A DNA stretch of 64,000 nucleotides from an uncultured Anaerolineales bacterium (GCA_964474695.1 CAYYTK010000024.1:2490-66489), one strand, 5' to 3'. Counted from the first letter of the stretch, positions 6,312-23,385 are shown. Numbers and translations are program-made. Notes: generated by a model from the sequence alone, not told the origin.

Positions 6312-6313
6312 GC

Positions 6314-9300
6314 ATGGAACTAAACGTTAACGACATTCTCACTCATCTATTGTGCGTTAACTTGCCTGACGCCAAGCTTGGCGTGGTTGTCCGAGGTATT
6401 CAACAGATTGACCCGGTGCAGATTGCGGAAGCTGTCGCCGAAACACTGAACCGAAAGCTTGTGGTTGCCATCATAGGCTATGACGCCTCTCCTTCGACGG
6501 TTGAAGGCGGCGTCTCTGAGGATGATAAGAATCGCACAGCTATTGAGATAGCGACTTCTATCGAGACAGCAGTAGACTGGAGAAATCACGCAGGCGACTA
6601 TGCTGGACGCATCTTGATCTTTGTGCCTGGCGAGGTTGACAAGCTTGGCTCGTTGCGAGGTCTTGATATCCTCACAACGCGCGACTTGACGCTCCATTTG
6701 ATACAATGGGTCAGCAATAGCATTGTGCGCAATGCGCCGCAACGTCGTTTTTGGCAAGCTCTGGCGAATATCGCCGCAACTTTACCCTTTAGAATGCTTC
6801 TCGATTTCACGCGTGCAGTCTCTGCACAACCAGACAACGTGAATGCCATTCCAACCGAACTCTGGCGATTGGGGCTGCTCGAGGATAGCGTACTGCTAAA
6901 CGCCGAAACCGATGTGGGCGACCGCCTGGAGCGGAACCGCGAGCTAATCGCTGGGATTGGCCAGCTTTCGGACAAGAGCCGAAAACGCATGAATCAGGTT
7001 CTGCGGCGCGCAGCAGGAGATCAGCAGCGCGAACTGCGGGCTGCCGCCCAACAACTCCGCGAGTTCTTTGCCACCGGCACGCCCAGGCTACTGCAGGGCC
7101 TGCGCCTGGACACAGTCGAGCAGTTGATTGAAGCTGGCCGCTCGGAGGCTGAGCCTCCGCCGATTCCACTGCCCACCGACGAAGGTGAGGTGGTGGTTGC
7201 TCCACCGCTCAAGCCAGAACGAACACTGCGCGGTGCTGAACTGATCGAAACCGTCGCTCGGCGGATCGTGGGCGGGAGCGACCGTGAGGCGGTGGCTGCC
7301 TATGTCGACCGAGTACGTAGCCAGATGGCTGACACCGAAGACGACAACGGGGACCCCATCGATGATGAAGTGCTGCGACCGCTAACCGCCGGACGACCGC
7401 TTGCAACCAATGTCAAGCCACAGACGCGCACGCTGCGCGCCTTTCTGACAGCGTTTTGTGGTGCCGAGCGATGGGGCGGCGCATTGCAAGCCGAACAGCA
7501 CAGTCTGCGCGACGTCATCCAACGTTTCACTCCGAACAGCAAGGCGGAGCCGTTCAACCCTTACGCTGCCTCCGAGGACGACCAAAGCATGGTTGGCTTA
7601 CTCGCCAACATTGATTCGCAATTGTCTGACCGCCCCGGTTTAAGTGTCAGTTGGAAGACCATCGCTGCAGCACGCGCTGACCTTGTTCAGGACCTCGACC
7701 TGCTCGTCGCTGACCCCATTGCCCTGCTCTATACTGACGATAGGGCTCGTGACGCGATGGGGCGCTACCTGGATGCTTACGCCGACCTACTACGGTTGTT
7801 GAGCACCCACATGGGGGAACTAAACACACGCTTCCGGAAGGCATATCGCGCCATCTTGCAGGGGCTACTGCGACTTGATGTGGTATTTGTGGCCACACCC
7901 GGAGAGAACCCCGGCGAAGCCGATCTTATTTGGAAGGCGCTACTCACCCCCTTGCATCCGCTCCATCTGTGGCGCTATCGTACGATTCTGGAAAAGACCG
8001 GTCCGCACTTGACCGAAGATGAACAGCACCAACTGACGGAGGCGTTACCCAAACTGCCGCATTTGCTTCATTTTGTAGCAGTAAGCGATATGCGTCTGGG
8101 GCGAATTACGCTGCCTTTAGCGGGCGCACTGGAAGGACTGCCCATCTATGAAAACCGTACCAACCGCTATCTGGGTAGCGACGGTCTCGAGTTCTTGGGC
8201 GACCTGTTGCGCAGTTGGTTGACATTTGCGCCTTACAGCCAGCCCCACATCCGCCTGGCTTTGATCGATCCACCGTATCTTCCTGACGCTCTGCGCGCGG
8301 TCCGGGAGTTCCTGCGTGGCCGGGCTCAGACCCGGGTAGTTGTTGATGCCTACCGTACACGGCCACAGAATGTGCTCGAACACTTAGCGGAAATGGAGTT
8401 CGAGGGACAGGATAGCGCAGTTGCCGAATTATTACTTAGTGGGCAGATCGGCCTCAATCTGCATGTCTGCGATAACCTGACAGAAGTTGCAAAGCGATTG
8501 ACCGAACGACCAGTGCACATCGTTTATAGCTTCGATCAGTCCTCCTATGACCTAACCAAGAGTGGCCGGCATCGGCACCTGGTTGTGAGCCCGCTAGTCA
8601 TCACCTACGAATACACCTTTGACGAGGCATATAAGAAGGGATCAATTGCACCGTCATCCGATGCCGAGAGTGGATTGTTTGCCGACTATCATACGCTAGT
8701 TAACCAAGCCATTGACCTTCAAGAAGATCAATCATTCCAGGTACAGATCGGCAGTGGTGCGGATGTGGGAGCCCTCAACAGAGTGTTGCACAGCGAGTGC
8801 GCGCAGTGGCTAGCCGTGGCTGACCGAACACTTCTGGGCTACGCGCCTCTGGCCGCCGTACCCCTGGTCGAACAACTCCAAGGCCGCCGTGAAGTGGCGG
8901 TGTGGGCGCATGCCACATCGCGGTCAGTGAGCCAATTTGCTGCCATGCTGCGCGAGCGTTACAACTTGCTGCCAGATGGTAATTATCTCGTGCACCTAAT
9001 GCAGCAGTTCGGACACATTGCCGCAGGTGGCCTCTTCAGTGCAGTGCGCGCCAATAACCTCAACGCCCAGCAACGCGACCGCCAACGAAAAGGACTGGTT
9101 GGTACGGTGTTGGCAGCACATTGGTATAGGAGCCAGTACCCCGGCGCCCTAATTGCGTCATTGGACAGTGGGTTGGCGCGCCAATGGCTGGCCTTGCAGG
9201 CACCAAGTCGTGAACGTGCCGACCTAATCGGGCTCCGCCAAGATGAGCAGGGTAACCTAATCATTGATATCATTGAAGTAAAGGCAGTCGAACAGGCACA

Positions 9301-11173
9301 AAGGGAAGTGCAAATACGCACTGCCCCACAGAGTAGGCAAGTGACATTGAGCGGGCCGGCTGTTAATCAATTGCGATCTACGCTTAGCGTTGTCACACCC
9401 ATTTTTGCACAAGCTAACACGCAACTTGACCTGTTCGGACAGGCGCGGCGCGAGGCTCTCAAATATCAGCTCTATCGCGAGTGCTTCCGGGAATTACACG
9501 CTAACGAAGATCAGTATCGCTGGTACAAACTACTCAATACGGCTTTCCGGGAGCCGTCAGCGCGGACTACCTCTGCAACGCGCTGTCAGGGGTTAGTCGT
9601 ACACCTGCTCTTTGAGGAAAACGGCGCAGATGAACGCTTTGTCGACAGTAATGGCGACGTTACGCTGGTGCGCCTACGGACCAACAGTATCCAAGCGTTA
9701 TTGACTCCAGATGGCGACAGTTCCACAAGCATGGGACCATCAAACGCGGTTCCACTCCCGCCGGAGCCACCGCCCCCCAGCTCGGCCCCTGGTTCACCCG
9801 TGCGAGATACCCGACCAACGGCCATTGCACCAATGTATCCGCGAGCAGGCGATGCCTCGCCGCACAGAGAAGGGGTGACGAGCCAATCGTCATTGCTCTC
9901 CGGCACCGCTGACGAGCTCAGCCCAGCCACTTCGTCTGGCGAACCATTGTTACCGCCAGCACCAATGATGACACCGCCAGCGTACGATATCCTTCTGGGT
10001 GACACAGCAGGTTCAAGCCAATATGGGGTGCTTGGACGAGCCGGGACCAAAACGGTTGTGCTCGACCTCAACGGTACAAACACTATCAGCATCTTTGGTG
10101 TCCAGGGAAGTGGCAAGTCATATACGGTGGGAAGTGTCGTCGAGATGGCGACCCAATCTTTTGCAGGAACCAACTTGTTGCCATCGCCGTTAGCCTCGGT
10201 CATTTTTCACTACCACGCGAGCCAGGACTACCCGCCCGAGTTCGTATCCATGATCGCGCCCAACAGCCGTCAAGATGAAGTACGCGTGCTAACTGAGGAA
10301 TATGGCGCGCACCCAGGTCGCCTGGAAGACGTACTGATCCTCACATCGGCAGACAAGGTTCGGGATCGCCAGGCCGAGTTTCCTTCAATCCGTGTTGAGC
10401 CGATCCTCTTCAGTTCGAGTGAACTATCGCTTAAGGACTGGCAGTTCCTGATGGGTGTCTTCGGCGACCAGATGTACATGAAGCAAGTTACCCTGATTAT
10501 GCGGCGCTTACGCCGACAACAACTCACTTTGGCGAACCTTCGCGAGGAAATTGACGCTTCTGGCCTTAGCGACAACCAGAAGGCGCTGGTCAATACTCGC
10601 TTAGATTTCGCTGAACCATTCATTGACGACAGTTACCGACTAGCGGACATATTGCGCCCAGGTCGGCTTGTGATTGTTGACCTTCGCGATGAGCTAATCA
10701 CTAAAGAAGAAGCGCTCGGCCTCTTTGTCGTCATGCTCAACATCTTCGCGAATGCCGAGCGAGACCAGAACTTCAATAAACTGATTGTCTTCGATGAGGC
10801 GCATAAGTACATGAGTGACGTTGAACTGGCAGACTACATCGTCGATGTGGTACGTCAGATGCGCCATCAGGGTGTGTCTGTGTTGATTGCATCACAGGAT
10901 CCGCCGTCACTACCTAATGCAATCATCGAGCTATCGACCTTGGTTGTTCTCCACCGATTCAATTCACCCAAATGGCTCAAGCACGTTCAGCAATCAGTGA
11001 CCGCGCTGGGCGAGCTTCAGCCAGAGCAATTGGCCAGTCTGCGCTCTGGAGAGGCATATGTCTGGGCAGCCAAAGCCACGGACGTGAACTTCACGCGGCA
11101 TGGCGTGAAGATGCGTTTTCGCCCGCGGGTCACCCAGCATGGTGGTGGAACCAAGACGGCAGTTGAGCCATAA
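6314..11173 (+). CDS. DptH/Mad8-like large protein: PD-(D/E)XK motif plus C-terminal HerA/FtsK ATPase
   Basis: 1619 aa; Walker A FGVQGSGKS, Walker B LIVFDEAHKY, MRHQGVSVLIASQDP; ADL..(x13)..EVK motif; Pro-rich linker before the ATPase. Confidence 0.75.
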   Translation: MELNVNDILTHLLCVNLPDAKLGVVVRGIQQIDPVQIAEAVAETLNRKLVVAIIGYDASPSTVEGGVSEDDKNRTAIEIATSIETAVDWRNHAGDYAGRILIFVPGEVDKLGSLRGLDILTTRDLTLHLIQWVSNSIVRNAPQRRFWQALANIAATLPFRMLLDFTRAVSAQPDNVNAIPTELWRLGLLEDSVLLNAETDVGDRLERNRELIAGIGQLSDKSRKRMNQVLRRAAGDQQRELRAAAQQLREFFATGTPRLLQGLRLDTVEQLIEAGRSEAEPPPIPLPTDEGEVVVAPPLKPERTLRGAELIETVARRIVGGSDREAVAAYVDRVRSQMADTEDDNGDPIDDEVLRPLTAGRPLATNVKPQTRTLRAFLTAFCGAERWGGALQAEQHSLRDVIQRFTPNSKAEPFNPYAASEDDQSMVGLLANIDSQLSDRPGLSVSWKTIAAARADLVQDLDLLVADPIALLYTDDRARDAMGRYLDAYADLLRLLSTHMGELNTRFRKAYRAILQGLLRLDVVFVATPGENPGEADLIWKALLTPLHPLHLWRYRTILEKTGPHLTEDEQHQLTEALPKLPHLLHFVAVSDMRLGRITLPLAGALEGLPIYENRTNRYLGSDGLEFLGDLLRSWLTFAPYSQPHIRLALIDPPYLPDALRAVREFLRGRAQTRVVVDAYRTRPQNVLEHLAEMEFEGQDSAVAELLLSGQIGLNLHVCDNLTEVAKRLTERPVHIVYSFDQSSYDLTKSGRHRHLVVSPLVITYEYTFDEAYKKGSIAPSSDAESGLFADYHTLVNQAIDLQEDQSFQVQIGSGADVGALNRVLHSECAQWLAVADRTLLGYAPLAAVPLVEQLQGRREVAVWAHATSRSVSQFAAMLRERYNLLPDGNYLVHLMQQFGHIAAGGLFSAVRANNLNAQQRDRQRKGLVGTVLAAHWYRSQYPGALIASLDSGLARQWLALQAPSRERADLIGLRQDEQGNLIIDIIEVKAVEQAQREVQIRTAPQSRQVTLSGPAVNQLRSTLSVVTPIFAQANTQLDLFGQARREALKYQLYRECFRELHANEDQYRWYKLLNTAFREPSARTTSATRCQGLVVHLLFEENGADERFVDSNGDVTLVRLRTNSIQALLTPDGDSSTSMGPSNAVPLPPEPPPPSSAPGSPVRDTRPTAIAPMYPRAGDASPHREGVTSQSSLLSGTADELSPATSSGEPLLPPAPMMTPPAYDILLGDTAGSSQYGVLGRAGTKTVVLDLNGTNTISIFGVQGSGKSYTVGSVVEMATQSFAGTNLLPSPLASVIFHYHASQDYPPEFVSMIAPNSRQDEVRVLTEEYGAHPGRLEDVLILTSADKVRDRQAEFPSIRVEPILFSSSELSLKDWQFLMGVFGDQMYMKQVTLIMRRLRRQQLTLANLREEIDASGLSDNQKALVNTRLDFAEPFIDDSYRLADILRPGRLVIVDLRDELITKEEALGLFVVMLNIFANAERDQNFNKLIVFDEAHKYMSDVELADYIVDVVRQMRHQGVSVLIASQDPPSLPNAIIELSTLVVLHRFNSPKWLKHVQQSVTALGELQPEQLASLRSGEAYVWAAKATDVNFTRHGVKMRFRPRVTQHGGGTKTAVEP

Positions 11174-11372
11174 CAATAGGTCATGCAGAGTCATGGAGGA
11201 GTCACCTCTCGGCAACCAACCACACTAGACCACGGTTCTCCCGCTTCACAAGACGCCTGTGGCGTGACACCAGGTCATGGCTTAAGGGAGAATCTGACTG
11301 ATCTTCAGACCGTCAACCTAGCTGTGCTTCGTGGGGTGTCGGAGGGATAGCTCACACAATAGAATACCAGCA

Positions 11373-11552
11373 AGAAACCGCACCGTCGAGTCTCGCGCAA
11401 TTGAGCTGCTGAGGATTCTGTTCCCGGACAAGACCCCCCGGAGCAGGACTTCTATCGCTTCTGCGTCAATCAATCTGGCCATGGAGATGCGGCAACGGGT
11501 ACGCGATGAGCTGAGCAAGCTGGATCGGGAGTATGCGCCGGTGTCGATGCGG
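11373..11552 (+). pseudogene. brxL: Fragment resembling the BREX BrxL (Lon-like) region
   Basis: Translation ELLRILFPD...LAMEMRQRVRDELSKLDREY resembles the recalled BrxL segment GLLKL.HPD...YAMEVRRRVKEQLKKL; there is no full ORF around it. Confidence 0.6.
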
Positions 11553-11872
11553 TCGAAGTGCCCGGATCAGTTTCAGAGGGAACATCGAAAGTCGCAGTTT
11601 GTAGAGCCAAGTGCGGTGAATTGAACAGACTGACCGGTGATTCGATTTTGGGGCGTGAAAGAGAGAGCCGAGAGGGAACTCCGATGCCAATCACTCATGA
11701 AGATGAGTAAAGGGGTCTGAAGTCGTATGCACTTCTCACAATCTACTGGAATTCTTGCCTGAAGGCTAATTCCCAAAGGCCAAACAAGGCAAGCACAGAC
11801 GGGAGCGGGCCAAACTTCGACCGATACCAAGGAATGTACGGAGAAACCGGCCCCCAACAGGGGTGAGACAAC

Positions 11873-14800
11873 ATGACCACTCACGTCAACAAACCAATGC
11901 CGTTGTCCATCCTCAACAAGGCGATGAACGAGGATTTCCGCAGCATCGTGGTCAGGCGAGCGCTCGACTGGGCCGATCGGGCCAGCGCTCAGGCACGACG
12001 AGGGTTTTGCGCTGCGTTACGTAAGGATGTCAGGCTATCCGGATTTACTGACTCGTCCCGCGCCCTGAACAGTCCTAAGCGGCCGGCGCTCGCGGCCGAG
12101 ACCATCAAAGCATCCCACTACTCCAACGAACTGATGGGCGCCATCCTTCGCGTGTGGGACGAGTCCCATGCAGAGCTACATCGGGTCGCGCTGGAGTTCT
12201 TGCGAAATTCAGCAGAGCCAGTGCAGGAACCCGTGCTTATTGAAACCGAGTTCCCGGCGGTCTGGTCTACGGATGACATGGAGACAGCTGCTTCCGAGTT
12301 CTTACGGCAGCATGCCTCCTTCGATGAGGATGACGTAGCCCTGATGCTCTGCTATCTCAGTGGACGGGCACCTGTGCCGGTTGAGGTTTTGGAGCACCTG
12401 GCCTCTGCTGCGACATCAATGGACCGGTCCCAACAGCCCGAATCGGGTACGCTTCAGGTTGCCGTGCCGACTCAACTCACCAGCAGATCAGAGGTACCTA
12501 TCGTGTCAGACACTCCCACAATCTTCATGGATGTCCTAGCCCGGCTACAGGCCTTGTCTCCTGACGCTCAAGAATGGGATCGTATGCCGTTGCTGATCGC
12601 TTCCATCGAGGCATTAGGCCAAAGCAAACGGGCAGAACGCGAACAGGGGCGCGATCAACTCCGCCAGGCCCTTATCACCCTCCACCGCGAAGCCGAGGCA
12701 GCTCTGGACTGGTGGGGCTACGATATTGGAGCCTGGTCGGCCGATAGCTGCCCGTGGAACCAGGCTGCTGAGCTGGCCGTGCAAATCGGACAATGGCAGA
12801 CCGACCTGCTGCAACATGCTCATCTCCGGCAGGCACCGACGACCAGCAGGGCGGAGGAGCAGTCCCGACGTAAGGCCGTGGACGAATTGGAAGTCAACAT
12901 TCAGCGCTGCCACGCTGAGCTTGATGCGACGCTTAGCAGCGGCGGCCCTGGTCCTGGCGGGCCTCGAGACGATGAAAAGGCACCTACCAGGATTCCGCCT
13001 GAACCCGCTGAGGAAGTTGCTCCGTCGCCTGCCGGCCTTGTGTCCGGCGTCGCCGATCTTTCGGTCGTTCCGGTACAGGAGACCAAGCAGGCAGAACCTG
13101 TTCCACCGCGGGCGGACGTCGCAGAGGCGCCCCCAGCCGGCCCGATCTCGCCCGAGACATCGGAACCCCAGGTTATTGAATCCCCTTACGACATCGCTGG
13201 TTTCGAGGTGATCGAGCCGGTTGAAGGACCGATCGGGGAACCGCCCCTCAAGGCCCTACAGCCAAGCGTGAAAACAAGCGCACCGGCCTCCATTCAGGAA
13301 GAGCCTGCTTCCACCCCGTTTGCGGCCCCAATGGACGAATCGGATGCGGCATGGCACACCCTGCTGTGGGGCATGGTAGCCGAAGATGATCTGGCGGGCG
13401 CCTATTGGCTGGTGAGGTCCCTTATTGCCATGGGGCGGCCCACACCAATTCCCGAATGGCTCCTGGCGGCTCTGCTCGGTTCCCGCTGGATCACCGCCGA
13501 CACAGCTGGGTTGGCACGTGATTTGCTGCAAATCGCCAATTCACACGTCACGACCGACCACGCACCCACTCTAGAACTACTATCGCTTGCAGCTGCTTTG
13601 CGCCCCGCGCTGACTGCGCCCTATAGTGGCATGGTGGCCTGGCTAAACACCCCTTCCTGTTGCCCGGCGCTTCGTGATTTAGTTGAGGCTATCCATTTAT
13701 TCGCCGGCTTCGGAATCGGCCTCCATCAAGAAGATGTCCTCGGTGTGGCTGGCGAAGAACAACGTGACGAAGCGATTGCTGCGGCCGCCCGTGAGGCTCG
13801 CAATTGGCTTGACGGAGCATCGAGCCGCCGCGAACGCGTGAGCAGTGTCTGGCATGCCCTGGTGGGCTCCAAAGGCGCGCTGAGGGAGTTCCTGTTGCCA
13901 GTGAGCGAAAACCGGCAGGAGAAGGTCGATGCTGTCCGCTCGGAACTCAGGATGTGGCAGGATCGGCCCGCTGTCTACAAGCGTTTCGATGAAATGAACG
14001 TCGCGGCTAGCATCGGAAGACCCGAACGCGTCATTGGTAGCGGCAAACAAGACCTCTATCGCGAGGTGGAGAGAGCGACCGAGCTGGCCGCGCGCTGGTG
14101 CGATCTCGTGGAGCGTGCACGCGCTATTGCAGCGCGCGGGGATTGGTTCGGCGAACAGATTGCAGAACTCCGGGAGGGTATCGAGACGGACCTGCCAGGC
14201 ATTGAGGCGGCCCTGGATCAGTTGATCGCCTCCCAACCCGTAGACGTCGCCTCCTCGGGGCGAGCCTTGCGAATCAGCCTCCGACAGCTCCGTGAGTTGC
14301 TCAACCTTGTGATAGCAGATGAGCAACCGCCGGTTGCCGCCTCTGCGCTAGAAACCCCGATTGCCGCGCTCGATTCTCTTGATGCGATGCTGGCTAACCG
14401 TCTCCTGTATCTGCCCGAAGTTGCGCTCAACAACGCAGGTGCGCCCACCCAGGAAGGCATGCTCAAAATCGCCTCTGTCCTCCAGACAACTCGTCATGAG
14501 GATCGGACCATCTACTCAGCGGCTCAACAGTGGCTGATTCAACAGGACTACCGTTTCTTCGATCGCGTGTTCGCTGCCACAACTGATGAGAATCTGGCTG
14601 CAGATCTGCGTCAGCGATATGATGAGGCCTTGACCGCCTCCAGGGCGGCCTTGCGCGCCTCCATTGACGAGACAGGAAGCCTGCTTGAACAGGCGTTGCT
14701 GGATCAGGTGATCAACGATGAGGAGCGGGCCAACTATGGCTCACGCTTTGCCTCACTGGCTCTGGAAGAAGTCAGGAATTTCAAGGCCAAGCTGGCTGAT

Positions 14801-17800
14801 CTGGAGCAGGTGCGACTGGAAATCCACCAGAGATACGAGCAACGTCTGGCATATTTGCAGGAGCAGTATGAGCTGATCGCCGATCGCTTCAGCGCGTCCC
14901 ATATCCCCGCTGAGCGGCAAAAGGAAGCGTTGGCCCTTGTGGCCTCGGCTTTGGAGCGACGGGATGTGAGAGTGGTAGATGAGTCCCTCGCGCGGCTTCG
15001 GGAAGTACTGGATACAGGCGCCACCTTGCCGGATGACTGGTACGCGCCAGCCGCAAGCAGGGATTACCTGGAAGAATTCAGATCCGCTTCCCAAAGGATC
15101 GAACTGTGGCTCGAACAAACCCGTGGCGACTTGCGCGCCCTGGCCGACGCTGCTCAGAATGGTACCACAGCTGCAGGCATTCAGTTTGGCAGGCTCGGAG
15201 AACCAAGACGAAAGGAGGCTTCAGAGGCTTTCCTCTCGTGGCGTGCGCTCAAGCAATCTTCGGGCAAGGGCAATAACGCGGCCTGGATTGCTACCATCCT
15301 GCGCTATCTGGGCTTTGACCTCAAGACCGGAGCCGGCGCTTCTGTCGCCGTTGAACCGATCGGCACCGACTGGCTTCACGCCCGAGTTCAGATGGCAGCT
15401 GGCGATCTTGCGCGGCCAATACCTGAGTTTGGCTCACAGGCTCAAGGCCACTATGACGTGATCTGTCTCTGGGAGCGCCCCGGCGCTGACACCATTGCAG
15501 CGCGTCTTCGCGACCTGAATCTCGATATCCACACGGTCATCGTGCTCTACCTGGGACGGATTACGGATCGTCAGAAACGCGATGTCATCCGCGTCAGCCG
15601 CGACAGGGAACTGGCCATCGCCGTTCTCGATGAGACTCTTCTGGTCTTCCTCGGGCAAGAACACGATGTGCGATTGCCGGCATTCCTTCGCTGCACACTT
15701 CCTTTCTCTGCCCTGAACCCTTACCGGCCTTTCCAGGCCGGTGATGTGCCACGTGAGATGTTCTTCGGCCGCGAAGACATGGCTCGGGAGATCCTGAGGC
15801 AGGGCGGAAGTTGTCTGGTCTACGGCGGTCGACAACTCGGCAAGTCCGCGTTGTTGCGCCACGTCGAACGGCAATTCCATCGTCCAGAACGAGATCAATA
15901 TGCGTGGATCGAGAACATGAAGCTGGTTTTCGATCCCCCCGCAGGAAAGAGCTTCAGCAATATATGGCGTAGTCTGCGCGAAGGGTTCAAAGCTCATGGG
16001 CTTCTTGATTCGCGCGTCAGTACTGACCGGTCGGAAGAGATCGCACGATATATCCGAGAGTCTATGCGCTCCAATCCTGGACGTCGCGTTATCGTCATGC
16101 TGGACGAAGCAGATTCATTTCTGGATGCCGACGCTCGGGAAGGTTTCCGCACTGTCGTCGCCCTTCGCGAGTTGATGTTAGGCACAGGACAGCGGTTTAA
16201 GATTGTCTTCGCCGGTCTGCAGAACGTCCAGCGCTTCCAGGGTATCCCGGATCAACCCCTCGCCCACTTCGGCACGCCCATCTGTGTGGGGCCGCTGGAA
16301 GCAGGGGAGGCCCAGCAGCTTGTCCGGCAGCCGCTGGAGGTGTTGGGATATCGCTTCGCCAACGATAGCGCGGTGCTCAGAATCCTATCCTACACAAACT
16401 ATCACCCAGGCTTGATTCAGTACTTCTGCCAGGAGCTGCTCAAACACCTGCGGGACCATGCCAGCGCGATGCTGCCGCCCCAGGTGGTGCTGCAAGAAGA
16501 CATCGAGGCTGTCTATCGCTCATCGCAGGTGCGAGAACGCATTCGTGAGCGTTTCGAATGGACACTGGCTCTTGATATGCATTACCAGGCGATCGCATGG
16601 GCGCTAATCGAAGATCAGGGCAAGGATCGGGATGGCTACGGTCGCGCCTATTCTCCCGGTAACATCTCGCATCTCGTGAGGGAATGGTGGCCAGCGGGCT
16701 TCCAGGATATAAGCACTGACCAACTGCGAGGATGGCTGGACGAGCTATGCGGCCTGGGCGTGCTGGTACGCAACGTGAACAATGGCCAGTACCGGCTGCG
16801 GAGTCCCAACATGGTGCGGCTCCTCGGCAAAGAGACAGACATAGAGGAACGGCTTCTCGAGCTGAACACGAAGCCGCCGGTCGTGGCCATGGAGGCCGAT
16901 AGCCATCACGCGCCGCTTGATGATCGAGCCAGTCGATATGGCCCATTGACCTACGCACAAGAACGTAGTCTGTCGCAGCCGCGATTTGGTGTTGGCCTGA
17001 TCTTTGCTTCCGAAGCTCTGGGTTGGAAGCTGCTGCCTGCGGCAATTCGCCGCTTCCTTCCTGCGGATCTGCCGGCCGGGTTTGGTGATTGCACACACAT
17101 TCCAACCACGCTGGCAGCTGAAGACCTCGATGACTGGTTGAAGGAGTATCTCAAATCGCACGCGAAAACGGAACGGATGATCCTGTACCGTGAAGTCCGA
17201 TGTGCTGATTCGCCAGCTATGGCGGGGCTGGTTGACAAGGCCCTGCGCTTCTGTCAGCGTCACCAGGCCAAGGATCGCTGGATGCGCCTCTTGTTCTTGT
17301 TTGACCCTCAGTCCACCTGGCAATGGGTGGGCCTACCGGAACCAGAGCGGCTTGGTCTTGAGGAGGCAGCTGATGCTGCACTTTGGCCTTGGCCGTGGAC
17401 CGCTTCGGCGGTAAGGCGCCGGCTTGCTCAACACGAGAAGTGGGACAACAACGACGAAGGGACCAAGGCTGCCTTGCAGGCGACAGGGGGATGGCCACAT
17501 CTTCTGGATGTCTTGTTTGAACGATGCGGCAAGGAAAGCGATCTCAGGCCAAGTGCCGGGCAGTTCGCGCAAGAGCTGGTCGATCCGATCTCTCAACTGG
17601 CGAGCGACTTCCGATCAGGTTTAGGAGTCGACAAGAACAAGCTAGGCCACCGAATACTGAAGTTCGTCATCGAGGACGGACATGGGCAACTCGCTGAAGA
17701 AGACCTCACTCCCGTTCTGATCGGCGGTGCCCCAGAACTGACAGAGGTACAGTGCCATCAGGCTAAGGATTTCCTGCTCCGGCTTGGCTTGCTGCGACTT

Positions 17801-17857
17801 GAGAGCCAAACGCTAATCGCAGATTCGATCATCATGCGATTGATGGTTCAAGAATGA
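11873..17857 (+). CDS. Very large STAND/AAA-like ATPase (N-terminal helical and coiled-coil regions, restriction-enzyme-like fold, P-loop, wHTH)
   Basis: 1994 aa; NPY..GDVPREMFFGRE, Walker A YGGRQLGKS, Walker B IVMLDEAD, wHTH-like WLDELCGLGVL, and a possible degenerate second NTPase at the C-terminus. Confidence 0.75.
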   Translation: MTTHVNKPMPLSILNKAMNEDFRSIVVRRALDWADRASAQARRGFCAALRKDVRLSGFTDSSRALNSPKRPALAAETIKASHYSNELMGAILRVWDESHAELHRVALEFLRNSAEPVQEPVLIETEFPAVWSTDDMETAASEFLRQHASFDEDDVALMLCYLSGRAPVPVEVLEHLASAATSMDRSQQPESGTLQVAVPTQLTSRSEVPIVSDTPTIFMDVLARLQALSPDAQEWDRMPLLIASIEALGQSKRAEREQGRDQLRQALITLHREAEAALDWWGYDIGAWSADSCPWNQAAELAVQIGQWQTDLLQHAHLRQAPTTSRAEEQSRRKAVDELEVNIQRCHAELDATLSSGGPGPGGPRDDEKAPTRIPPEPAEEVAPSPAGLVSGVADLSVVPVQETKQAEPVPPRADVAEAPPAGPISPETSEPQVIESPYDIAGFEVIEPVEGPIGEPPLKALQPSVKTSAPASIQEEPASTPFAAPMDESDAAWHTLLWGMVAEDDLAGAYWLVRSLIAMGRPTPIPEWLLAALLGSRWITADTAGLARDLLQIANSHVTTDHAPTLELLSLAAALRPALTAPYSGMVAWLNTPSCCPALRDLVEAIHLFAGFGIGLHQEDVLGVAGEEQRDEAIAAAAREARNWLDGASSRRERVSSVWHALVGSKGALREFLLPVSENRQEKVDAVRSELRMWQDRPAVYKRFDEMNVAASIGRPERVIGSGKQDLYREVERATELAARWCDLVERARAIAARGDWFGEQIAELREGIETDLPGIEAALDQLIASQPVDVASSGRALRISLRQLRELLNLVIADEQPPVAASALETPIAALDSLDAMLANRLLYLPEVALNNAGAPTQEGMLKIASVLQTTRHEDRTIYSAAQQWLIQQDYRFFDRVFAATTDENLAADLRQRYDEALTASRAALRASIDETGSLLEQALLDQVINDEERANYGSRFASLALEEVRNFKAKLADLEQVRLEIHQRYEQRLAYLQEQYELIADRFSASHIPAERQKEALALVASALERRDVRVVDESLARLREVLDTGATLPDDWYAPAASRDYLEEFRSASQRIELWLEQTRGDLRALADAAQNGTTAAGIQFGRLGEPRRKEASEAFLSWRALKQSSGKGNNAAWIATILRYLGFDLKTGAGASVAVEPIGTDWLHARVQMAAGDLARPIPEFGSQAQGHYDVICLWERPGADTIAARLRDLNLDIHTVIVLYLGRITDRQKRDVIRVSRDRELAIAVLDETLLVFLGQEHDVRLPAFLRCTLPFSALNPYRPFQAGDVPREMFFGREDMAREILRQGGSCLVYGGRQLGKSALLRHVERQFHRPERDQYAWIENMKLVFDPPAGKSFSNIWRSLREGFKAHGLLDSRVSTDRSEEIARYIRESMRSNPGRRVIVMLDEADSFLDADAREGFRTVVALRELMLGTGQRFKIVFAGLQNVQRFQGIPDQPLAHFGTPICVGPLEAGEAQQLVRQPLEVLGYRFANDSAVLRILSYTNYHPGLIQYFCQELLKHLRDHASAMLPPQVVLQEDIEAVYRSSQVRERIRERFEWTLALDMHYQAIAWALIEDQGKDRDGYGRAYSPGNISHLVREWWPAGFQDISTDQLRGWLDELCGLGVLVRNVNNGQYRLRSPNMVRLLGKETDIEERLLELNTKPPVVAMEADSHHAPLDDRASRYGPLTYAQERSLSQPRFGVGLIFASEALGWKLLPAAIRRFLPADLPAGFGDCTHIPTTLAAEDLDDWLKEYLKSHAKTERMILYREVRCADSPAMAGLVDKALRFCQRHQAKDRWMRLLFLFDPQSTWQWVGLPEPERLGLEEAADAALWPWPWTASAVRRRLAQHEKWDNNDEGTKAALQATGGWPHLLDVLFERCGKESDLRPSAGQFAQELVDPISQLASDFRSGLGVDKNKLGHRILKFVIEDGHGQLAEEDLTPVLIGGAPELTEVQCHQAKDFLLRLGLLRLESQTLIADSIIMRLMVQE

Positions 17858-19164
17858 GGTCCCGGTTTCTTGATCTGCTGGCGCAGCTTCCCAGTGTGAA
17901 GGCATTCGTTGACAACATCACTGAGGACATCGGCGCCCGGCGAAGTGTTGTGGTCTTGGTGCCGGTCACCGTTAGTCCCGGTTGGGTGTGGTCTTTGCTA
18001 GATGCCGGGCTGTGGCGTCGCCAGTTTCTCGTTGAGTCGCTAGATTCGCTGGCTCTTGGCAGCGGCGGTACGCCTGTCGAGGCACTGGGTGAGGCACTAC
18101 ACGTCAAGTGGCCCGCACAACAATCGAGAGATGTGGCTTCCCTCATGATGAGCGAAGGCCTGCCAGATGTTGTTGTACTCGAGGGTATCGAGACCCTGGA
18201 GCCAGCGCGGCGTGACGCATGGCTGCGTTTCGTGGGGCAATGGGCTCAGATAGGCCAGAATCTGGCAGGGCGATCTTCACCTACGCCGGTTCTCTGCGCT
18301 ATTCTCCAGCCTGCCTGTTTTGCTTTCGATGCCCTCGAGAGCAACGTCTTGCTTGGGATTCACTGGTGGTGGGGGCTCCCCTCTGTTCTCGAACTCAAGC
18401 TCCTGTGTCGGCTCGCAAGTCGGAAAGACATGGGCAACGGCTCGGATGCCAGATGGCTGGAATATCTTCTACCGGCCCTGGCCACCAACGATATCGTTCT
18501 CCTCGAAAGGCTGTGGGACGCCCATCTGGTGCAGATCGATCAATTCATGGCTTGCATACGGGAACTTGGGCATGAGAGAGAGTGGACTGGTGATTGCCTA
18601 AGGCAATGGGGAGCCGCTCAGTTGATGAGCTCCAATCTCGGCCGAAACGGCCCACTTCCACCGGTGCCCCCAGCAAATGTGCGCGTCTTGTGGTCGCGCG
18701 GAGCAGTCCACGCGACCCATGAGTATGGCGTCGAGCTGCATCCTTCCGCCCTCCATATGCTCGGCCGCCAAAGCGAGCTGCAGCATCGCCTCTGGCGAGG
18801 ACAGGCCGAACTACTACAGCCTACGCTGGATAGCATTCGACTGGACTTCTGCAGCTACCTCACGCGGTCATACGGCAGAGAATGGCCTGTAAGATGGTTC
18901 AGACCTGAACATCCGGACGAAGAGGCCGCCGTCCGTGAGAATCCTCTGGCTTGTCAGTGGGGCTACCTTGAGTGGCTGATCAAGAATTGTCCTCAGTTGT
19001 CACGCGAGCGTCGCTGGCTGTCTTTGATCACGCCAGCTGCACGCGCGCGGAATGCCGTCGCCCACTACCGAGTTGTTTCTCGTGGGGATTATGAACACAT
19101 CTTGCTGCAGCATAGGCAATTCGCAGAGGCAACAATGACCCCGACTGGCGCAGCATTCTCGTGA
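17854..19164 (+). CDS. Protein with a degenerate P-loop-like N-terminus and a C-terminal HEPN-like RxxxxH motif
   Basis: 436 aa; ATGA overlap with the upstream ATPase stop; RNAVAH at 19048-19065 within a helical C-terminus. Confidence 0.6.
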   Translation: MRSRFLDLLAQLPSVKAFVDNITEDIGARRSVVVLVPVTVSPGWVWSLLDAGLWRRQFLVESLDSLALGSGGTPVEALGEALHVKWPAQQSRDVASLMMSEGLPDVVVLEGIETLEPARRDAWLRFVGQWAQIGQNLAGRSSPTPVLCAILQPACFAFDALESNVLLGIHWWWGLPSVLELKLLCRLASRKDMGNGSDARWLEYLLPALATNDIVLLERLWDAHLVQIDQFMACIRELGHEREWTGDCLRQWGAAQLMSSNLGRNGPLPPVPPANVRVLWSRGAVHATHEYGVELHPSALHMLGRQSELQHRLWRGQAELLQPTLDSIRLDFCSYLTRSYGREWPVRWFRPEHPDEEAAVRENPLACQWGYLEWLIKNCPQLSRERRWLSLITPAARARNAVAHYRVVSRGDYEHILLQHRQFAEATMTPTGAAFS

Positions 19165-19470
19165 GTATCTGGACCGTTTCTTGAACCCAAGACCCCGAGA
19201 CCGGAGAGATGGCTTGCTGTGACTACCCCATGGTGTGCGCTGAAATGCTGGTAGTGCTTTACTGGTTGCCACTCCAACATTGACGCCGCCCCAACCCTGA
19301 GGTAGAGTCAACTCAGGGTCGCCTTTCAGCAGCCAATCCCACCGTCCAGCGGACTTCCGTTCTTCCAGGACGCTTGCGACCCGACAGCAGGCCATCTCGC
19401 CGAAGCATTCTGCGCTCGGTTCGAGGTGATCTGCTCTCGGGCCGCAAACATCTGACACGGAGCGAGAGCC

Positions 19471-19722
19471 ATGCTGCACAGTCCGCTGTTCTTCGTCTGG
19501 ATCGGCTGGGTGCTGATCGTCGGCGTCATCGCTGTGGTGCGCGGGATCTACGCCAGGCGGGAGAATGCCGAGCGGGAACAGAGGCGCACGGAACGCGCTT
19601 CGCGACGGGTCGGACGCACTCAGCATCCGATCAGTCTCCCGCAGCGCCACTACCTGCCGCCTGACTACCGCCAGCACCTCATTGATGCCGGCATCATCAA
19701 GCCTGCGGGCGATCCTACCTGA
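19471..19722 (+). CDS. Small single-pass membrane protein
   Basis: 83 aa with an N-terminal hydrophobic helix followed by a basic stretch. Confidence 0.5.
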   Translation: MLHSPLFFVWIGWVLIVGVIAVVRGIYARRENAEREQRRTERASRRVGRTQHPISLPQRHYLPPDYRQHLIDAGIIKPAGDPT

Positions 19723-19810
19723 CCGGGCTTACGTCCCGGATAGGCAAGCTTACGCTTGCCATGAACGCCAGACATCAGTTCTGGCGTTTCTTCTTTGAGC
19801 AGCACCCGTC

Positions 19811-20077
19811 ATGGACTTCGAGCAGGCGCCCGACGACTTCGGGTACATCGTCTTCGACCGCACCGACCGGGAGGCGGACGCGCGACGCTTCTACATGATC
19901 GCCTGGCAGGCCACCCTGGTCGATGACGGCGCAGTGGTGCGCACCTTTGGCCGCAAGGGGCGCTGGAAGCGCGTCATCACCACCCCTTACCCCTCGCTCC
20001 AGGCTGCCTGGCCTTTCATTCGCGCCACGGTCAAGACCCGCCTCCGCCATCACTACCGCATCGTCGAATCCGGCTGA
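19811..20077 (+). CDS. WGR domain protein
   Basis: 88 aa; RRFYMIAWQATL.D..VVRTFGRKG is the typical WGR pattern (here FGR). Confidence 0.75.
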   Translation: MDFEQAPDDFGYIVFDRTDREADARRFYMIAWQATLVDDGAVVRTFGRKGRWKRVITTPYPSLQAAWPFIRATVKTRLRHHYRIVESG

Positions 20078-20114: not shown

Positions 20115-20168
20115 TCTGGCCTGACACGAGAATCAGGCCGCGGTGCCGGGACGTAAGCCCGGCGGTAA

Positions 20169-21638
20169 TCAGGCGACCGTGGCCCGGGGGATGAGCAGCG
20201 CCATCGCCCAGGGCAGGTCGCGCGGGTCTTTGAGCACGATCACCGAGTTGCAGATCTCGGCCATCTTCTCCGGCTTGCCGTCGGGGATCACCACCGCCCC
20301 CGTGCGCGCCCGGTCGGGCGTCGCCGCGTAGGGCACGTAGCCGTCCCCGTCGGTGACCAGCACCACCCAATGGTTCGGGTAGCGCCGCCACAGGTCGGCC
20401 AGGAAGGCGAAGTAGGTGCCGCCCTCGGTGGGCCAGGCCGCCGGCGCAAAGAGGAGCGCATCGCCCCACCCCGCGCCGATCAGCCACGTGTCGTCGAACA
20501 GCACCCCGACCACGTCCCCGCCGGCGTCGCGCACGGCCAGGGCGATGGCCTGGGCCGCCACCCGCGCCGCCCAGATCTTCCCCTTCGAGTACCACATCGA
20601 CTCGCTGACGTCCAGGCAGATGACCACCTGGGGTCGGGGAGCGGAGCGGCCGGGCAGGTCCAGCCGGAACGGGATGCCGTCCCCGCGGGCCGCCTCCCGG
20701 CGATCCAGCCGGCCGGGCGCGACCACCTCGACGCCGCCCTTCGGGACGGCGAAGCGCAGCCGGATGGCCCGGGCGATGGTCACCGCGTCGGGCTCCGGCG
20801 GGCCGGGCTGCACGGGCAGCTCCTTGCGCTCCTGGCCGTCCATCGGCTCACGCTCGCGGGTGTTGGCCTGCGCCTCGACCTGCGCCGCCTGGCCGGTGCC
20901 GCGGGCGGCGATCTTGGGGTCGCCGAGCGGCATGGTCAGGCCTGAGCTGGCCTTGAGCTCCGGAAACTGCTCGATGATCTGCCGCAGCAGGCCGGGCAGC
21001 TCCTTGGCCGCGGTCCAGTGCGCGGCGGCCAGCAAGCCCAGAAACTCTTTGACCTGCTGGCCCCAGGGCTCGGCGTCGAAAACGGCATCGAGTACCCGGT
21101 AGGTCGGCAGACTGTACCACTCCGCCGCGAACGGCTGATTCGTTTGGGCGAACCGCCCGGCCAGCGCCGCCGCGCAGGCGACGCCGGCGAAGTCGGCGCC
21201 GACTTGCCTCAGCTCGGCCAGGTACTCGGCCATGCGCGCCCGGTTGACCGCATCGCGTACGGCGGTCAAAGGGACGGCCAACGGCGGAAAGAGACAGGCC
21301 ACCTGCGCCTCGCCCTGGATGTCCAACAGGATGTTGGCCAGCCAGTGCGGCGCGCCGGTCTCCTGTTCCACTTGCTGGAGCTCTTCCAACGGCTGCAGGA
21401 AGTGCCCCAGCTCGTGCGCCAGCAGCCCGATGGCCACCGGCGCGTCCTGCGTCACGTCGACGCCCTCGAACGCCGGCGGCAGCCAGATGTGCACTCCGTC
21501 GGTCGAGGCGGTATCGTCCTCGGCCACGGTGACCGCCGCCTGCACCAGCCGCGATGTGGCCGGCGCGACGACGGCCAGCACCTGGTTGGCCGCGGCGTTG
21601 AGCGTGCGTTCGACGGACGGTGCGTTCTGCGTGTACAT
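20169..21638 (-). CDS. HEXXH metallopeptidase-like plus VWA domain protein (CobT/DUF2201-like MoxR partner)
   Basis: LAHELGH; MIDAS motif ICLDVSESM, GGT, VTDG; lies directly downstream of the MoxR ATPase. Confidence 0.8.
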   Translation of the reverse strand: MYTQNAPSVERTLNAAANQVLAVVAPATSRLVQAAVTVAEDDTASTDGVHIWLPPAFEGVDVTQDAPVAIGLLAHELGHFLQPLEELQQVEQETGAPHWLANILLDIQGEAQVACLFPPLAVPLTAVRDAVNRARMAEYLAELRQVGADFAGVACAAALAGRFAQTNQPFAAEWYSLPTYRVLDAVFDAEPWGQQVKEFLGLLAAAHWTAAKELPGLLRQIIEQFPELKASSGLTMPLGDPKIAARGTGQAAQVEAQANTREREPMDGQERKELPVQPGPPEPDAVTIARAIRLRFAVPKGGVEVVAPGRLDRREAARGDGIPFRLDLPGRSAPRPQVVICLDVSESMWYSKGKIWAARVAAQAIALAVRDAGGDVVGVLFDDTWLIGAGWGDALLFAPAAWPTEGGTYFAFLADLWRRYPNHWVVLVTDGDGYVPYAATPDRARTGAVVIPDGKPEKMAEICNSVIVLKDPRDLPWAMALLIPRATVA

Positions 21639-21650
21639 GGCGCCCTCCCG

Positions 21651-22841
21651 CTACGCGACCGTGACCCCGATGCCCTGCAGCACCTTGCGGAACCCCTCGG
21701 CGGCTGCAGGGTCAATCGCCCCGAGCCGGCCGAAGTAGCCCGCCAGGAACCGCCGGTCGTCGGGCGCCTCGGCGGTCGTGAGCGCCTGGTACTCGATGGG
21801 CAGCGGCAGCTGCCCGCCCTGCACCGCCTTCCACGACGCCTCGATGGCGTTCTGCACCGGGGTCGTGAAGAGGCGGGCCACGGCCGGCGCGAACGCCACC
21901 GGCACCGGCGTCACCCGGCGCACCACCGCCGGGTCCAGGACGCTGCCCCAGGGATTGCAGGCCAGCGCCAGCTTCGCCCGCGAGCAGGGCGCCCACTCGA
22001 CGCCCCACAAGGGCGCTTCGAGCAGCCGCACGAACTCGTCGGTCCGGATGCCCATGGCCTGCGCCACGCTCGGCGGCGTCGGCAGGAGCGGCCGGACGAG
22101 GATGTCCTGCGCCCGCGTGTTGAAGCGGAGGAACTCGTCGATGAACAGCAGGACTTGTTCCCCGTCCCGCGCCCGCCGGAAGGCCCGGGCGAACGGCCCG
22201 GCGATCTCGACCCCGCCGGCCATCTTGACGCCGGCCAGGTCCGCATCGGCGAACGAGGGGCTGCCCGAGACCTCCTCGAAGCCCCAGGCGTTGCGGGTGG
22301 CCACCAGCCGGACCGCGGAGGTCTTGCCGCAGCCGGTGGGGCCGATCAGGAAGGGCACCTCGCCGGCGGCCAGCACCGCCTCCACCTGGTCGGCGAGGGC
22401 GGCGATCGCCCCGGCCACGGCCTGCAGGATCTTGTCCCGGAAGGTCGCGGCCGGCACCGGTGAGGGCGGTGTGGCCGTGGTGGGCGGCGCGGCCTGGGCC
22501 GGGCCCGCACCGAGCACCAGGATGTTCCCGGTGTCGGGCACGGGGCCGACCTTAAGCGCCAGCGCCAGCAGGTGTTTGCACGGCTGGCTGAAGTGTTGGC
22601 CCCGCTGTTGCCAGTCGGGGCAGTCGCACTCCAGGTCCAGCACGGCCGGGTTCGTCGCGTCCAGCGTGATGCTGGTCCGGTAACGGCCGACGATCTCGCC
22701 GGCGATCTCCTGCGCCGTGGCGGTGCTGACCCGCACCCGGCCCAGGTCGACGATCTCCTGCGCGCGCTCGACGCGGCGCTGGTCCACGGTGCCCCACTGG
22801 CGCAGCAGGTCCAGCAGGGCGGGCTGTGCTCCTTGTGTCAT
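21651..22841 (-). CDS. SWIM zinc finger plus MoxR/CbbQ-type AAA+ ATPase
   Basis: CDCPDW..PCKH SWIM; Walker A GPTGCGKT, Walker B LLFIDEF; start moved to the ATG at 22841 with an AAGGAG SD. Confidence 0.8.
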   Translation of the reverse strand: MTQGAQPALLDLLRQWGTVDQRRVERAQEIVDLGRVRVSTATAQEIAGEIVGRYRTSITLDATNPAVLDLECDCPDWQQRGQHFSQPCKHLLALALKVGPVPDTGNILVLGAGPAQAAPPTTATPPSPVPAATFRDKILQAVAGAIAALADQVEAVLAAGEVPFLIGPTGCGKTSAVRLVATRNAWGFEEVSGSPSFADADLAGVKMAGGVEIAGPFARAFRRARDGEQVLLFIDEFLRFNTRAQDILVRPLLPTPPSVAQAMGIRTDEFVRLLEAPLWGVEWAPCSRAKLALACNPWGSVLDPAVVRRVTPVPVAFAPAVARLFTTPVQNAIEASWKAVQGGQLPLPIEYQALTTAEAPDDRRFLAGYFGRLGAIDPAAAEGFRKVLQGIGVTVA

Positions 22842-22945
22842 GGCGTGTGTCTCCTTCGGGTGTGCCGGAGGAGCGCAAGGCGTCCCGGCCGGGGCGCCCT
22901 GCGCCCGGTGCCGGGAACTGTGATGGCGGCTGAGGGCCGCCGCGG

Positions 22946-23371: not shown

Positions 23372-23385
23372 CGTGCGTCTCCTCC

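Follow-up and report, generated by a model that had tools for sequence, protein, structure and literature searches.

What do two overlapping genes do together, when one encodes a 1994-residue ATPase and the other a 436-residue protein ending in a ribonuclease (RNase)-like motif? This question is raised by positions 11,873 to 19,164 of a 64,000-nucleotide stretch of DNA from an uncultured Anaerolineales bacterium (GCA_964474695.1, CAYYTK010000024.1:2490-66489), hereafter the window, whose coordinates are counted from its first letter; we refer to the two gene products as the giant and the partner. A first-pass annotation had proposed a two-component defence system of a sensor and an RNase. This idea is supported here: the RxxxxH motif proved conserved, the two genes co-occur elsewhere and nothing found refutes a HEPN fold; the defence role, together with the division into sensor and effector, is what we infer. 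Judging from genomic context and protein architecture, we consider it probable that the pair is an autonomous, horizontally mobile two-gene defence module, in which a HEPN RNase gated by a nucleoside triphosphatase (NTPase) brings about abortive infection. We favour this reading because the operon is conserved, the catalytic motifs (Walker A/B and RNxxAH) are under selection, the folds are appropriate, the parts are modular and the genes lie in defence-island contexts.

The two genes form a conserved operon in uncultured lineages

Open reading frame (ORF) calls and direct reading of the sequence bore out the annotated pair. The giant gene occupies 11873..17857 and the partner gene 17854..19164, both on the plus strand, and the stop codon of the first and the start codon of the second lie within a single ATGA at 17854..17857 (4 bp; junction ...caagaATGAggtcc...). 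This is an arrangement of translational coupling, and the partner is predicted to be translated in this manner from the same mRNA as the giant. Both ORFs are real genes and not chance ORFs, because dozens of homologues in other phyla retain their length, order and motifs. Promoter and terminator scans performed no better than on shuffled sequence.

To delineate the family, 1.84 billion cluster representatives were searched exhaustively for the partner with HMMER; this returned 1,466 clusters (50% identity) at E<=1e-3 and 423 at E<=1e-30. Nearly all of the top 150 clusters span the full profile at ~400-445 residues, with few shorter fragments; a word-seeded search yielded 72 clusters, every one annotated as hypothetical and nearly all of ~430 residues. 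In addition, a pattern-seeded scan of one-genome-per-species GTDB contigs (185,579 species representatives) with the partner profile recovered 35 loci, all from metagenome-assembled genomes (MAGs) and spread over about ten phyla. Chloroflexota contributed loci from Anaerolineae, Dehalococcoidia, Caldilineaceae, Roseiflexaceae and Chloroflexia, and the partner was also found in Latescibacterota, Binatia, Acidobacteriota, Armatimonadota, Entotheonella, Thermodesulfobacteriota, Bacillota, Myxococcota and Spirochaetia.

Co-occurrence was then scored by hmmsearch with profiles of both proteins over all ORFs of the loci. A giant homologue stood directly upstream on the same strand in 32 of the 35 GTDB loci and in every additional metagenomic locus, and the 4-bp overlap recurred in 22 distinct loci, so that the expected co-occurrence of the two genes elsewhere was confirmed, mostly with the overlap preserved. 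In most of the ~40 loci, the giant directly upstream of the partner is full-length, at 1700-2150 residues.

The partner combines a degenerate AAA+ domain with a probable HEPN RNase domain

Neither Pfam nor PADLOC 2.0 nor NCBIfam contains a family that the partner matches at reporting thresholds, and sequence searches of the PDB with the partner, HEPN-domain and giant profiles returned nothing useful. We aligned 35 partner sequences, with identity down to 29%, and found the following residues invariant: R312, W314 and R315 (within HRLWRGQ); W130, W172 and L179; and R399, N400, A403 and H404. W130 and W172 belong to a Trp-rich HWWWG(F/L)PS motif, and G174, P176, E180, C185 and R186 are nearly invariant, with Cys185-Arg186 located in a helix that follows a core strand. 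An AlphaFold2 (AF2) model of the partner (predicted local distance difference test score, pLDDT, 89.6; predicted TM score, pTM, 0.85) comprises an alpha/beta region at residues ~30-190, helices up to ~280 followed by a beta-hairpin, and an all-helical C-terminal domain at residues 297-427.

The N-terminus had been described from its sequence as degenerate and NTPase-like, and the structural comparison bears this out: residues 1-295 (17854..18738, plus strand) model as an AAA+ fold with a helical lid and without a P-loop. Foldseek matched the first ~300 residues to AAA+ proteins in the PDB over ~300-360 alignment columns (E 3e-4 to 1e-2), including Drosophila ORC/Cdc6, RuvB, subunits of the clamp loader RFC, the E. 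coli clamp-loader delta subunit, Roq1 and Avs3. No GxxxxGK[ST] motif, and hence no Walker A, is present in the partner sequence.

The C-terminal domain (residues 296-430, 18739..19143, plus strand) is probably a Swt1-like HEPN RNase, an assignment made from profile matches and an all-helical AF2 model. It carries an RNAVAH (Rx4H) motif at residues 399-404 (19048..19065, plus strand; translation checked), in which R399, N400, A403 and H404 are invariant both in the 35 partner sequences and in 28 C-terminal domains, so that the RxxxxH motif noted at first pass is present and conserved. HEPN_Swt1 (PF18731) was matched by 17 of these 28 domains of 141 residues, with a best E of 1e-4, whereas no other family matched more than 3 of the 28; the RNxxAH segment aligns with profile positions ~76-105. 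The proposed HEPN fold is consistent with the all-helical model and with the recurrent HEPN_Swt1 matches, every one of which falls below the Pfam cut-off. The sole near-matches in PADLOC, mostly to HEPN families, were CARF-HEPN (3 members), Cas13a, Csx1/Csm6 and PDC-M34B, a candidate PADLOC family that could not be placed (E ~0.02). In the AF2 model, the helices span residues 306-340, 354-362, 369-378, 380-403 and 410-427 with pLDDT >90. The Foldseek search was run on the whole partner, and its result is dominated by the AAA+ part.

The giant joins an ORC/STAND-type NTPase core to a large N-terminal module

The most conserved part of the giant is its NTPase core, with a mean pairwise identity of 0.58-0.59, as opposed to 0.29-0.39 in the N- and C-terminal regions, as one would expect were the latter to face a variable ligand. 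According to Pfam, AF2 and Foldseek, the core (residues ~1290-1665, 15740..16867, plus strand) contains nucleotide-binding, helical and winged-helix domains. Pfam AAA_22, a generic ORC-like AAA family, matched residues 1310-1453 at E 2.3e-8, above its curated cut-off; AAA_16 matched below its cut-off, and nSTAND1 and ATPase_2 gave only weak matches, in homologues or paralogues of the giant. Walker A (GGRQLGKS, residues 1318-1325, 15824..15847, plus strand) and Walker B (MLDEAD, residues 1409-1414, 16097..16114, plus strand) were both checked in translation. In alignment A2, 7 of the 8 Walker A residues are invariant and Q1321 is nearly so; D1411, E1412 and D1414 of Walker B are invariant and A1413 nearly invariant. 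A further invariant motif, G1473-P1474-L1475, follows the sensor-1 strand.

An AF2 model of residues 1100-1994 (pLDDT 83) was compared with known structures. The top Foldseek matches of the core were the archaeal Walker-type ATPases PABY2304 (2qen, TMt 0.65) and SSO1545 (2fna, TMt 0.55), followed by Cdc6/Orc1 (2qby, 1fnn, 2v1u) and then by the nucleotide-binding leucine-rich repeat receptors (NLRs) NRC3, CED-4 and NRC1 (NB-ARC domain). Matches of the whole model to the tandem-AAA+ proteins ClpC, NSF and Hsp104 were long and poor (TM 0.15-0.19), and a profile search by sequence recovered no relatives of the giant in the PDB. With its intact Walker motifs, its three-domain core and its nearest neighbours among ATPase_2, Cdc6/Orc1 and NLR proteins, the giant deserves the label of a STAND-like NTPase. 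A large repeat-type sensor C-terminal to the NTPase, which is a STAND feature, does not occur in it; the large extra region is N-terminal (~1100 residues), and just ~330 residues lie beyond the winged helix.

This N-terminal region had been put at ~1200 residues of helical or coiled-coil sequence. Its length is nearer 1100, and the helicity is partly borne out, by an A/L/R/E-rich composition and a single weak match to CEP63, a coiled-coil-type Pfam family (E 0.035). The region begins with an N-terminal module (residues ~10-350, 11900..12922, plus strand) made up of domain A (~10-170), a variable acidic linker and domain B (~215-350), in which G57, W95, L110 and W235 are invariant (alignment A5). 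A Pro/Glu/Ala-rich low-complexity linker follows (residues ~355-490, 12935..13342, plus strand; P 0.21, E 0.12, A 0.12), with a mean pairwise identity of 0.18. The subsequent middle region (residues ~491-1100, 13343..15172, plus strand; mean identity 0.33-0.39), to which the A/L/R/E-rich composition belongs, is presumed helical and is a candidate sensor or scaffold.

Two further domains flank the core. The pre-NTPase alpha/beta domain (residues ~1112-1280, 15206..15712, plus strand) shows the AF2 order alpha-alpha-beta-beta-beta-alpha-beta-alpha-beta and conserved PxFGSQ, W1200-x-R1202 and LD1253(E/D) motifs, at an identity of 0.48; no canonical nuclease triad is evident among its conserved residues. 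The C-terminal domain (residues ~1679-1994, 16907..17854, plus strand) begins with an alpha/beta part without a P-loop (~1679-1860), modelled with a beta-alpha-beta pattern, and ends in helices and a beta-hairpin. Tentatively, given the poor matches to tandem-AAA+ proteins, the alpha/beta part may be AAA-like.

Operon variants show that the parts are separable

The giant consists of two units that are encoded separately elsewhere, a ~1100-residue N-terminal module and an ORC/STAND-type P-loop NTPase core. Split operons of three or four genes occur in Dehalococcoidia (loci L005, L030, L033 and L034) and in L048, with an N-terminal module of 650-1221 residues (sometimes accompanied by a ~240-residue protein), an NTPase of 590-616 residues and the partner, which indicates that the parts are separable subunits. 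The N-terminal module and middle region likewise form separate genes in Dehalococcoidia and a separate protein of 1205-1240 residues in P0082, P0086 and P0089, and in L048. The NTPase of the split operons in Dehalococcoidia and L048 lacks the C-terminal domain of the giant (the hidden Markov model, HMM, match stops at ~1715-1720). Furthermore, the first ~220 residues are missing from the giants of Latescibacterota, Binatia and some Acidobacteriota, so that the Latescibacterota and Binatia versions are without domain A (the HMM match begins at ~213-225).

In L001 and L040, an IS630-type (DDE_3) transposase is inserted within the giant gene at HMM positions 1141/1143, leaving two intact ORFs; the insertion point is the boundary between the N-terminal and NTPase modules, where other lineages split the gene. 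The element of L001, at coordinates 6114-7249 of that locus, comprises a DDE_3 transposase and a helix-turn-helix. L028 and L036 carry copies with multiple frameshifts. Because of the IS630-type insertion, the two frameshifted copies and the patchy phyletic spread, the pair appears to undergo the turnover typical of defence genes.

In L035 (616 residues) and L041/P0243 (249-254 residues), the N-terminal domain of the giant is fused straight to the HEPN domain, with HMM positions 19-415 covered in L035 6630-8480 and 21-134 in L041 3826-4590; the fused portion amounts to domains A and B in L035 and to domain A in L041. Such fusions may represent either a minimal form of the system or products of in-frame deletion within the operon; a search with the HEPN-domain profile gave almost only fragments of ordinary partners and no sign that the fusion is a recurrent design. 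The fusion of L035 has a NurA-domain protein, an S8 protease and a TPR protein as neighbours, and that of L041 has an M78 peptidase and DUF4411.

Paralogous giants are coupled to other candidate effectors

Distant relatives of the giant, with a P-loop of the form GGRxLGK[ST] and 23-29% identity over residues ~1100-1850, adjoin different genes. P0081 (2028 residues; Streptosporangium lutulentum, L045 8001-16135) shares a 4-bp overlap with the gene for a 683-residue metallo-beta-lactamase/beta-CASP/RMMBL protein. P0090 (2249 residues; L047 8001-17536), which weakly matches ATPase_2, shares a 4-bp overlap with the gene for a 929-residue DrmE_C protein, followed by a DEAD helicase. P0085 and P0092 are giant relatives fused to pPIWI-RE modules, and P0088 adjoins an S8 protease, an MmeI-type restriction-modification (R-M) enzyme and a NERD-kinase. 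This exchange of the partner among paralogues argues more strongly than any other single observation that the effector is the partner and the whole an immune system. The idea that the beta-CASP and DrmE_C proteins share a pseudo-AAA+ adaptor with the HEPN partner was also tried; hhalign gave no signal.

More tentatively, and with rather less confidence than we place in the defence role of the pair, we suggest that the giant, its partner and the paralogues could represent an unrecognised superfamily of modular immune chassis with interchangeable effectors. The chassis would consist of the ~1100-residue N-terminal scaffold or sensor and the ORC/STAND-type NTPase, and its candidate effectors would be the pseudo-AAA+-HEPN protein, the beta-CASP nuclease, the DrmE-like protein and the fused PIWI-RE module. 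The HEPN version would be recruited through a hetero-AAA+ assembly, with the dead subunit docking into its active counterpart in the manner of clamp loaders. Such a system would be almost confined to uncultured lineages, and hence invisible to screens of cultured genomes.

The pair lies in an island of foreign composition among defence genes

The guanine-plus-cytosine (GC) content is 0.54-0.61 over bases 1-20000 of the window and 0.70-0.73 in the remainder, which places the pair in an island of foreign composition; no tRNA genes are present in the window. Upstream, on the plus strand, lie genes for a 1241-residue DUF4338(DruA)-DndF/SspF fusion (1132-4857; PADLOC DruA 2e-127, SspF 2e-12), a 483-residue SspG-like protein (4860-6311; 3e-6) and a 1619-residue DndH/SspH-like protein with a HerA/mad8-type ATPase end (6314-11173). 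By their sequences, these three tightly packed genes (1132-11173) are predicted to be a stand-alone restriction module of the DndFGH/SspFGH type, and the examined part of the island showed no modification genes of the dnd or ssp kind. The DUF4338-DndF architecture is known from earlier work (PMC10853773).

A gap of 700 bp, which holds a gene remnant, separates these genes from the pair. The remnant is a 97-residue ORF (11331-11624, plus strand) that matches the last ~50 profile positions of Pfam BrxL_ATPase (E 7.6e-5) and aligns weakly to the BrxL of L003; it is most likely left over from a deleted BREX locus. We searched ~40 other loci by tblastn for homologues of the three upstream genes and found none, and their absence indicates that the pair is autonomous. 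Moreover, two other sludge-metagenome runs yielded Logan contigs that match window positions 11530-19451 (7.9 kb) at 100% identity and have nearly the same two ends. Around this 7.9-kb unit, a search for flanking repeats or att sites found only short, chance-level repeats, and the common contig ends may be assembly breaks at which strain contexts differ.

Defence genes recur beside homologous pairs elsewhere. In L003, intact PglZ and BrxL genes precede the pair and SIR2-HerA lies downstream; other loci have a type I R-M system with Dcm/Vsr, or GmrSD, as neighbours, and still others have BrxA (L008), DruE3, a DRT-associated gene, SoFic, methyltransferases or transposases. An association with MADS or PARIS was considered and rejected: the neighbours that matched mad3, mad8 and AriA are ATPases of sugar ABC transporters, and these matches are false positives.

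A proposed mechanism and the alternatives to it

Under the defence reading, the N-terminal module of the giant would serve as sensor or scaffold, and the dead AAA+ domain of the partner would dock onto the giant in the manner of inactive clamp-loader or ORC subunits, in a complex that is inactive at rest. A phage-derived trigger, bound by the giant through its variable regions at the N-terminus and/or the C-terminus, might then induce an NTP-dependent conformational change or oligomerisation of the complex. Two HEPN domains would thereby be brought together into a composite active site, and cleavage of RNA (tRNA, rRNA or mRNA) would stop the growth of the infected cell, resulting in abortive infection.

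Several observations weigh against this interpretation. The HEPN_Swt1 scores are 12-20 bits, against a gathering cut-off of 27.5, and the C-terminal domain of the window's own partner gives no HEPN_Swt1 match. The defence context is not universal, since several Latescibacterota copies have a sugar ABC-transporter operon as neighbour, and searches of PLSDB plasmids, GenBank phages and IMG/VR yielded no copies. The transcription signal is a trace: it consists of a few 150-250-nt contigs, just one of them 100% identical, from two possibly genomic 'RNA-Seq' runs and one sludge metatranscriptome, and such contigs cannot demonstrate transcription or co-transcription. That giant and partner interact physically, what the pseudo-AAA+ domain does and which region is the sensor are likewise points that we infer. 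Two homologies that might have tied the proteins together were not recovered by hhalign, namely that of the giant's C-terminal domain to the partner's pseudo-AAA+ domain (no signal) and that of the giant's N-terminal domain to HEPN, as a second, inactive copy heterodimerising with the partner (probability <1%; at sequence level only).

Among the alternatives, the one that survives best, though we consider it unlikely, is that the pair is a toxin-antitoxin or addiction module, in which the giant neutralises a HEPN toxin and the two stabilise the island without any sensing of phage. HEPN toxins neutralised by a cognate partner are a common occurrence (HepT/MntA, PMC13000451), the coupling of the two genes is tight and the island is foreign; toxin-antitoxin and defence roles are, moreover, not mutually exclusive. 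However, a conserved 2000-residue NTPase with intact catalytic motifs far exceeds the needs of an antitoxin, the same chassis pairs with DrmE_C and PIWI-RE, which are not toxin-like, and Pfam detects neither an MNT (NTP_transf_2) nor any other known antitoxin domain in either protein.

We also regard it as distinctly unlikely that the roles are reversed, with the HEPN domain acting as an RNA-binding sensor or a catalytically regulated reader and the giant as the effector, for example through its pre-NTPase domain, or as an ORC-like loader or remodeller. The giant does possess a winged helix and the pre-NTPase alpha/beta domain is well conserved (identity 0.48), and some HEPN domains from the Swt1 family are thought to be non-catalytic RNA sensors (PMC3710099). 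Yet R, N and H never vary within the HEPN motif, as one would expect of catalytic residues, whereas the pre-NTPase domain has no conserved nuclease triad, and paralogues replace the downstream partner with obvious nucleases, which marks the partner position as the effector slot.

A housekeeping or regulatory role in RNA processing unrelated to defence, such as RNA quality control in Chloroflexota and Latescibacterota, seems quite improbable. It would suit the several Latescibacterota copies that occupy one conserved site by sugar ABC-transporter genes, the downstream synteny common to the window and L006, and the fact that eukaryotic Swt1 is a housekeeping nuclease (PMC3710099). It fits poorly with a patchy distribution over about ten phyla (35 of 185,579 species representatives in the pattern-seeded scan), the atypical GC content of the pair in the window, the disruption by insertion sequences and the pseudogenes, the repeated adjacency to BREX, R-M, GmrSD and SIR2-HerA, and the swapping of effectors in paralogues.

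Finally, that the pair is not autonomous, being part of a five-gene system with the DUF4338-DndF/SspF, SspG-like and DndH/SspH-like genes or a BREX accessory, is very improbable: all five genes do share one strand and one low-GC island, and BREX genes or remnants adjoin the pair three times (the BrxL remnant in the window, PglZ and BrxL in L003, BrxA in L008), but homologues of the upstream genes occur in 0 of ~40 other loci, the 700-bp gap with its gene remnant intervenes, BREX genes are missing from most loci, and the identical 7.9-kb contigs from other sludge samples hold the pair alone.

Relation to known systems

The first-pass annotation could assign the pair to no named system, and this holds for PADLOC 2.0, Pfam and NCBIfam. 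Against PADLOC-DB 2.0, which covers Avs, Druantia, Ssp/Dnd, MADS, Septu, Gabija and others, the giant matched just mad8, in the P-loop region and at E 0.043, and the partner matched nothing; NCBIfam returned nothing meaningful for either protein, and our literature searches found no description of the pair. PrrC and RloC are anticodon nucleases in which an NTPase is linked to a HEPN-type RNase that stays latent until phage infection releases it to cleave tRNA. PrrC carries its active ABC-type NTPase within the RNase polypeptide itself and is kept latent by a type I R-M enzyme. By comparison, the NTPase fold attached to the RNase of our pair is dead, and a giant STAND-like partner is present. 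PrrC and RloC are classed as HEPN proteins in a survey by Anantharaman et al. 2013 (PMC3710099).

The same survey described HEPN fusions of the Swt1/Abi2 type, including HEPN-STAND-TPR-S1 (Npun_F6454) and Ava_2192, which combines HEPN with a DUF499-type AAA+ ATPase. These fusions share with the pair a Swt1-like HEPN domain linked to a STAND or AAA+ NTPase, a conflict-system context and a retained Rx4-6H motif. They differ in being single proteins with an N-terminal HEPN domain and an active ATPase, whereas here a C-terminal HEPN domain sits on an inactive AAA+ domain and the NTPase is a separate protein of 2000 residues; a Pfam search found no match to DUF499 in the pair.

Antiviral STAND or NLR-like defence proteins (the Avs families and bacterial NACHT proteins; PMC13581612) resemble the pair in several respects: they, too, inhabit defence islands, use a nuclease-type effector, possess a very large additional region and build their P-loop NTPase from nucleotide-binding, helical and winged-helix domains. 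They presumably also share its logic of trigger binding, NTP-dependent assembly and effector activation. Avs and NLR structures (Avs3, Roq1, NRC3 and CED-4) also appear among the Foldseek matches of the pair. In contrast, Avs proteins are single polypeptides in the order effector, NTPase and C-terminal sensor, whereas the effector here is a separate protein, borne on a pseudo-AAA+ domain, and the giant has its large non-catalytic region at the N-terminus. The structures nearest to the pair are, furthermore, archaeal ATPase_2 and Cdc6/Orc1 and not NACHT or NB-ARC proteins, and no Avs model of PADLOC matches. The ATPase_2 proteins PABY2304 (2qen) and SSO1545 (2fna), which are the best structural matches to the giant's core, are themselves only ~350 residues long and lack the ~1100-residue N-terminal module, the extra C-terminal domain and a HEPN partner.

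As in some subunits of the clamp loader and ORC/Cdc6 assemblies, the N-terminal domain of the partner appears to keep the fold without the P-loop; those assemblies function in replication, as opposed to the immunity or toxicity envisaged here, and the likeness is offered as an analogy only. McrBC systems of the CoCoNuT type (PMC10542128) share large helical or coiled-coil proteins, HEPN domains, an ATPase or GTPase motor and a predicted RNA-targeting role in defence; they differ in having an McrB GTPase motor, there is no McrC in the pair, and no sequence relationship was detected. The pair differs from its known kin in its trans-acting effector on a pseudo-ATPase, its N-terminal large region and its restriction to uncultured lineages.

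If the defence reading is true, current catalogues have missed a sizeable defence family: the partner accounts for 1,466 clusters, all the genome copies recovered are from MAGs, and no family-specific model of Pfam, PADLOC 2.0 or NCBIfam picks up either protein. An NTPase chassis would be reused with at least three other effector types, unlike the Avs/NLR template, and the pair would offer a tractable case in which to study the recruitment and licensing of effectors in trans by STAND/ORC-type switches. The pair could also be the source of a new regulated RNase, and it would imply that defence discovery in cultured genomes under-samples phyla such as Chloroflexota and Latescibacterota.

Genes flanking the pair in the window

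The low-GC island extends leftwards beyond the window; at this edge, a 188-residue ORF (118-684, minus strand) carries two CxxC pairs (CLRCG...CDAC) and has the look of a zinc ribbon, with no Pfam match. Downstream of the pair are an 83-residue ORF with a hydrophobic N-terminus (19471-19722) and a gene for an 88-residue WGR-domain protein (19811-20077; Pfam E 6.5e-5). On either side of the latter lie terminator-like hairpins and the two arms (19723-19739 and 20146-20162) of a perfect 17-nt inverted repeat, CCGGGCTTACGTCCCGG. L006 encodes a WGR protein of 90% identity, but its adjacent giant and partner are just 46-48% identical to those of the window.

A minus-strand cluster of four genes follows at 20169-24354, encoding proteins of 489, 432, 185 and 322 residues, and the jump in GC content to 0.72 starts here. 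The 489-residue protein has no Pfam match and a DxSxS-like ICLDVSES motif, and was guessed to be vWA-like from its sequence; the 432-residue protein has both a SWIM zinc finger and a MoxR-like AAA domain, and the 322-residue protein belongs to the PD-(D/E)XK group (PDDEXK_1). The genes for the 489-, 432- and 322-residue proteins are syntenic in L006, at 49-58% identity.

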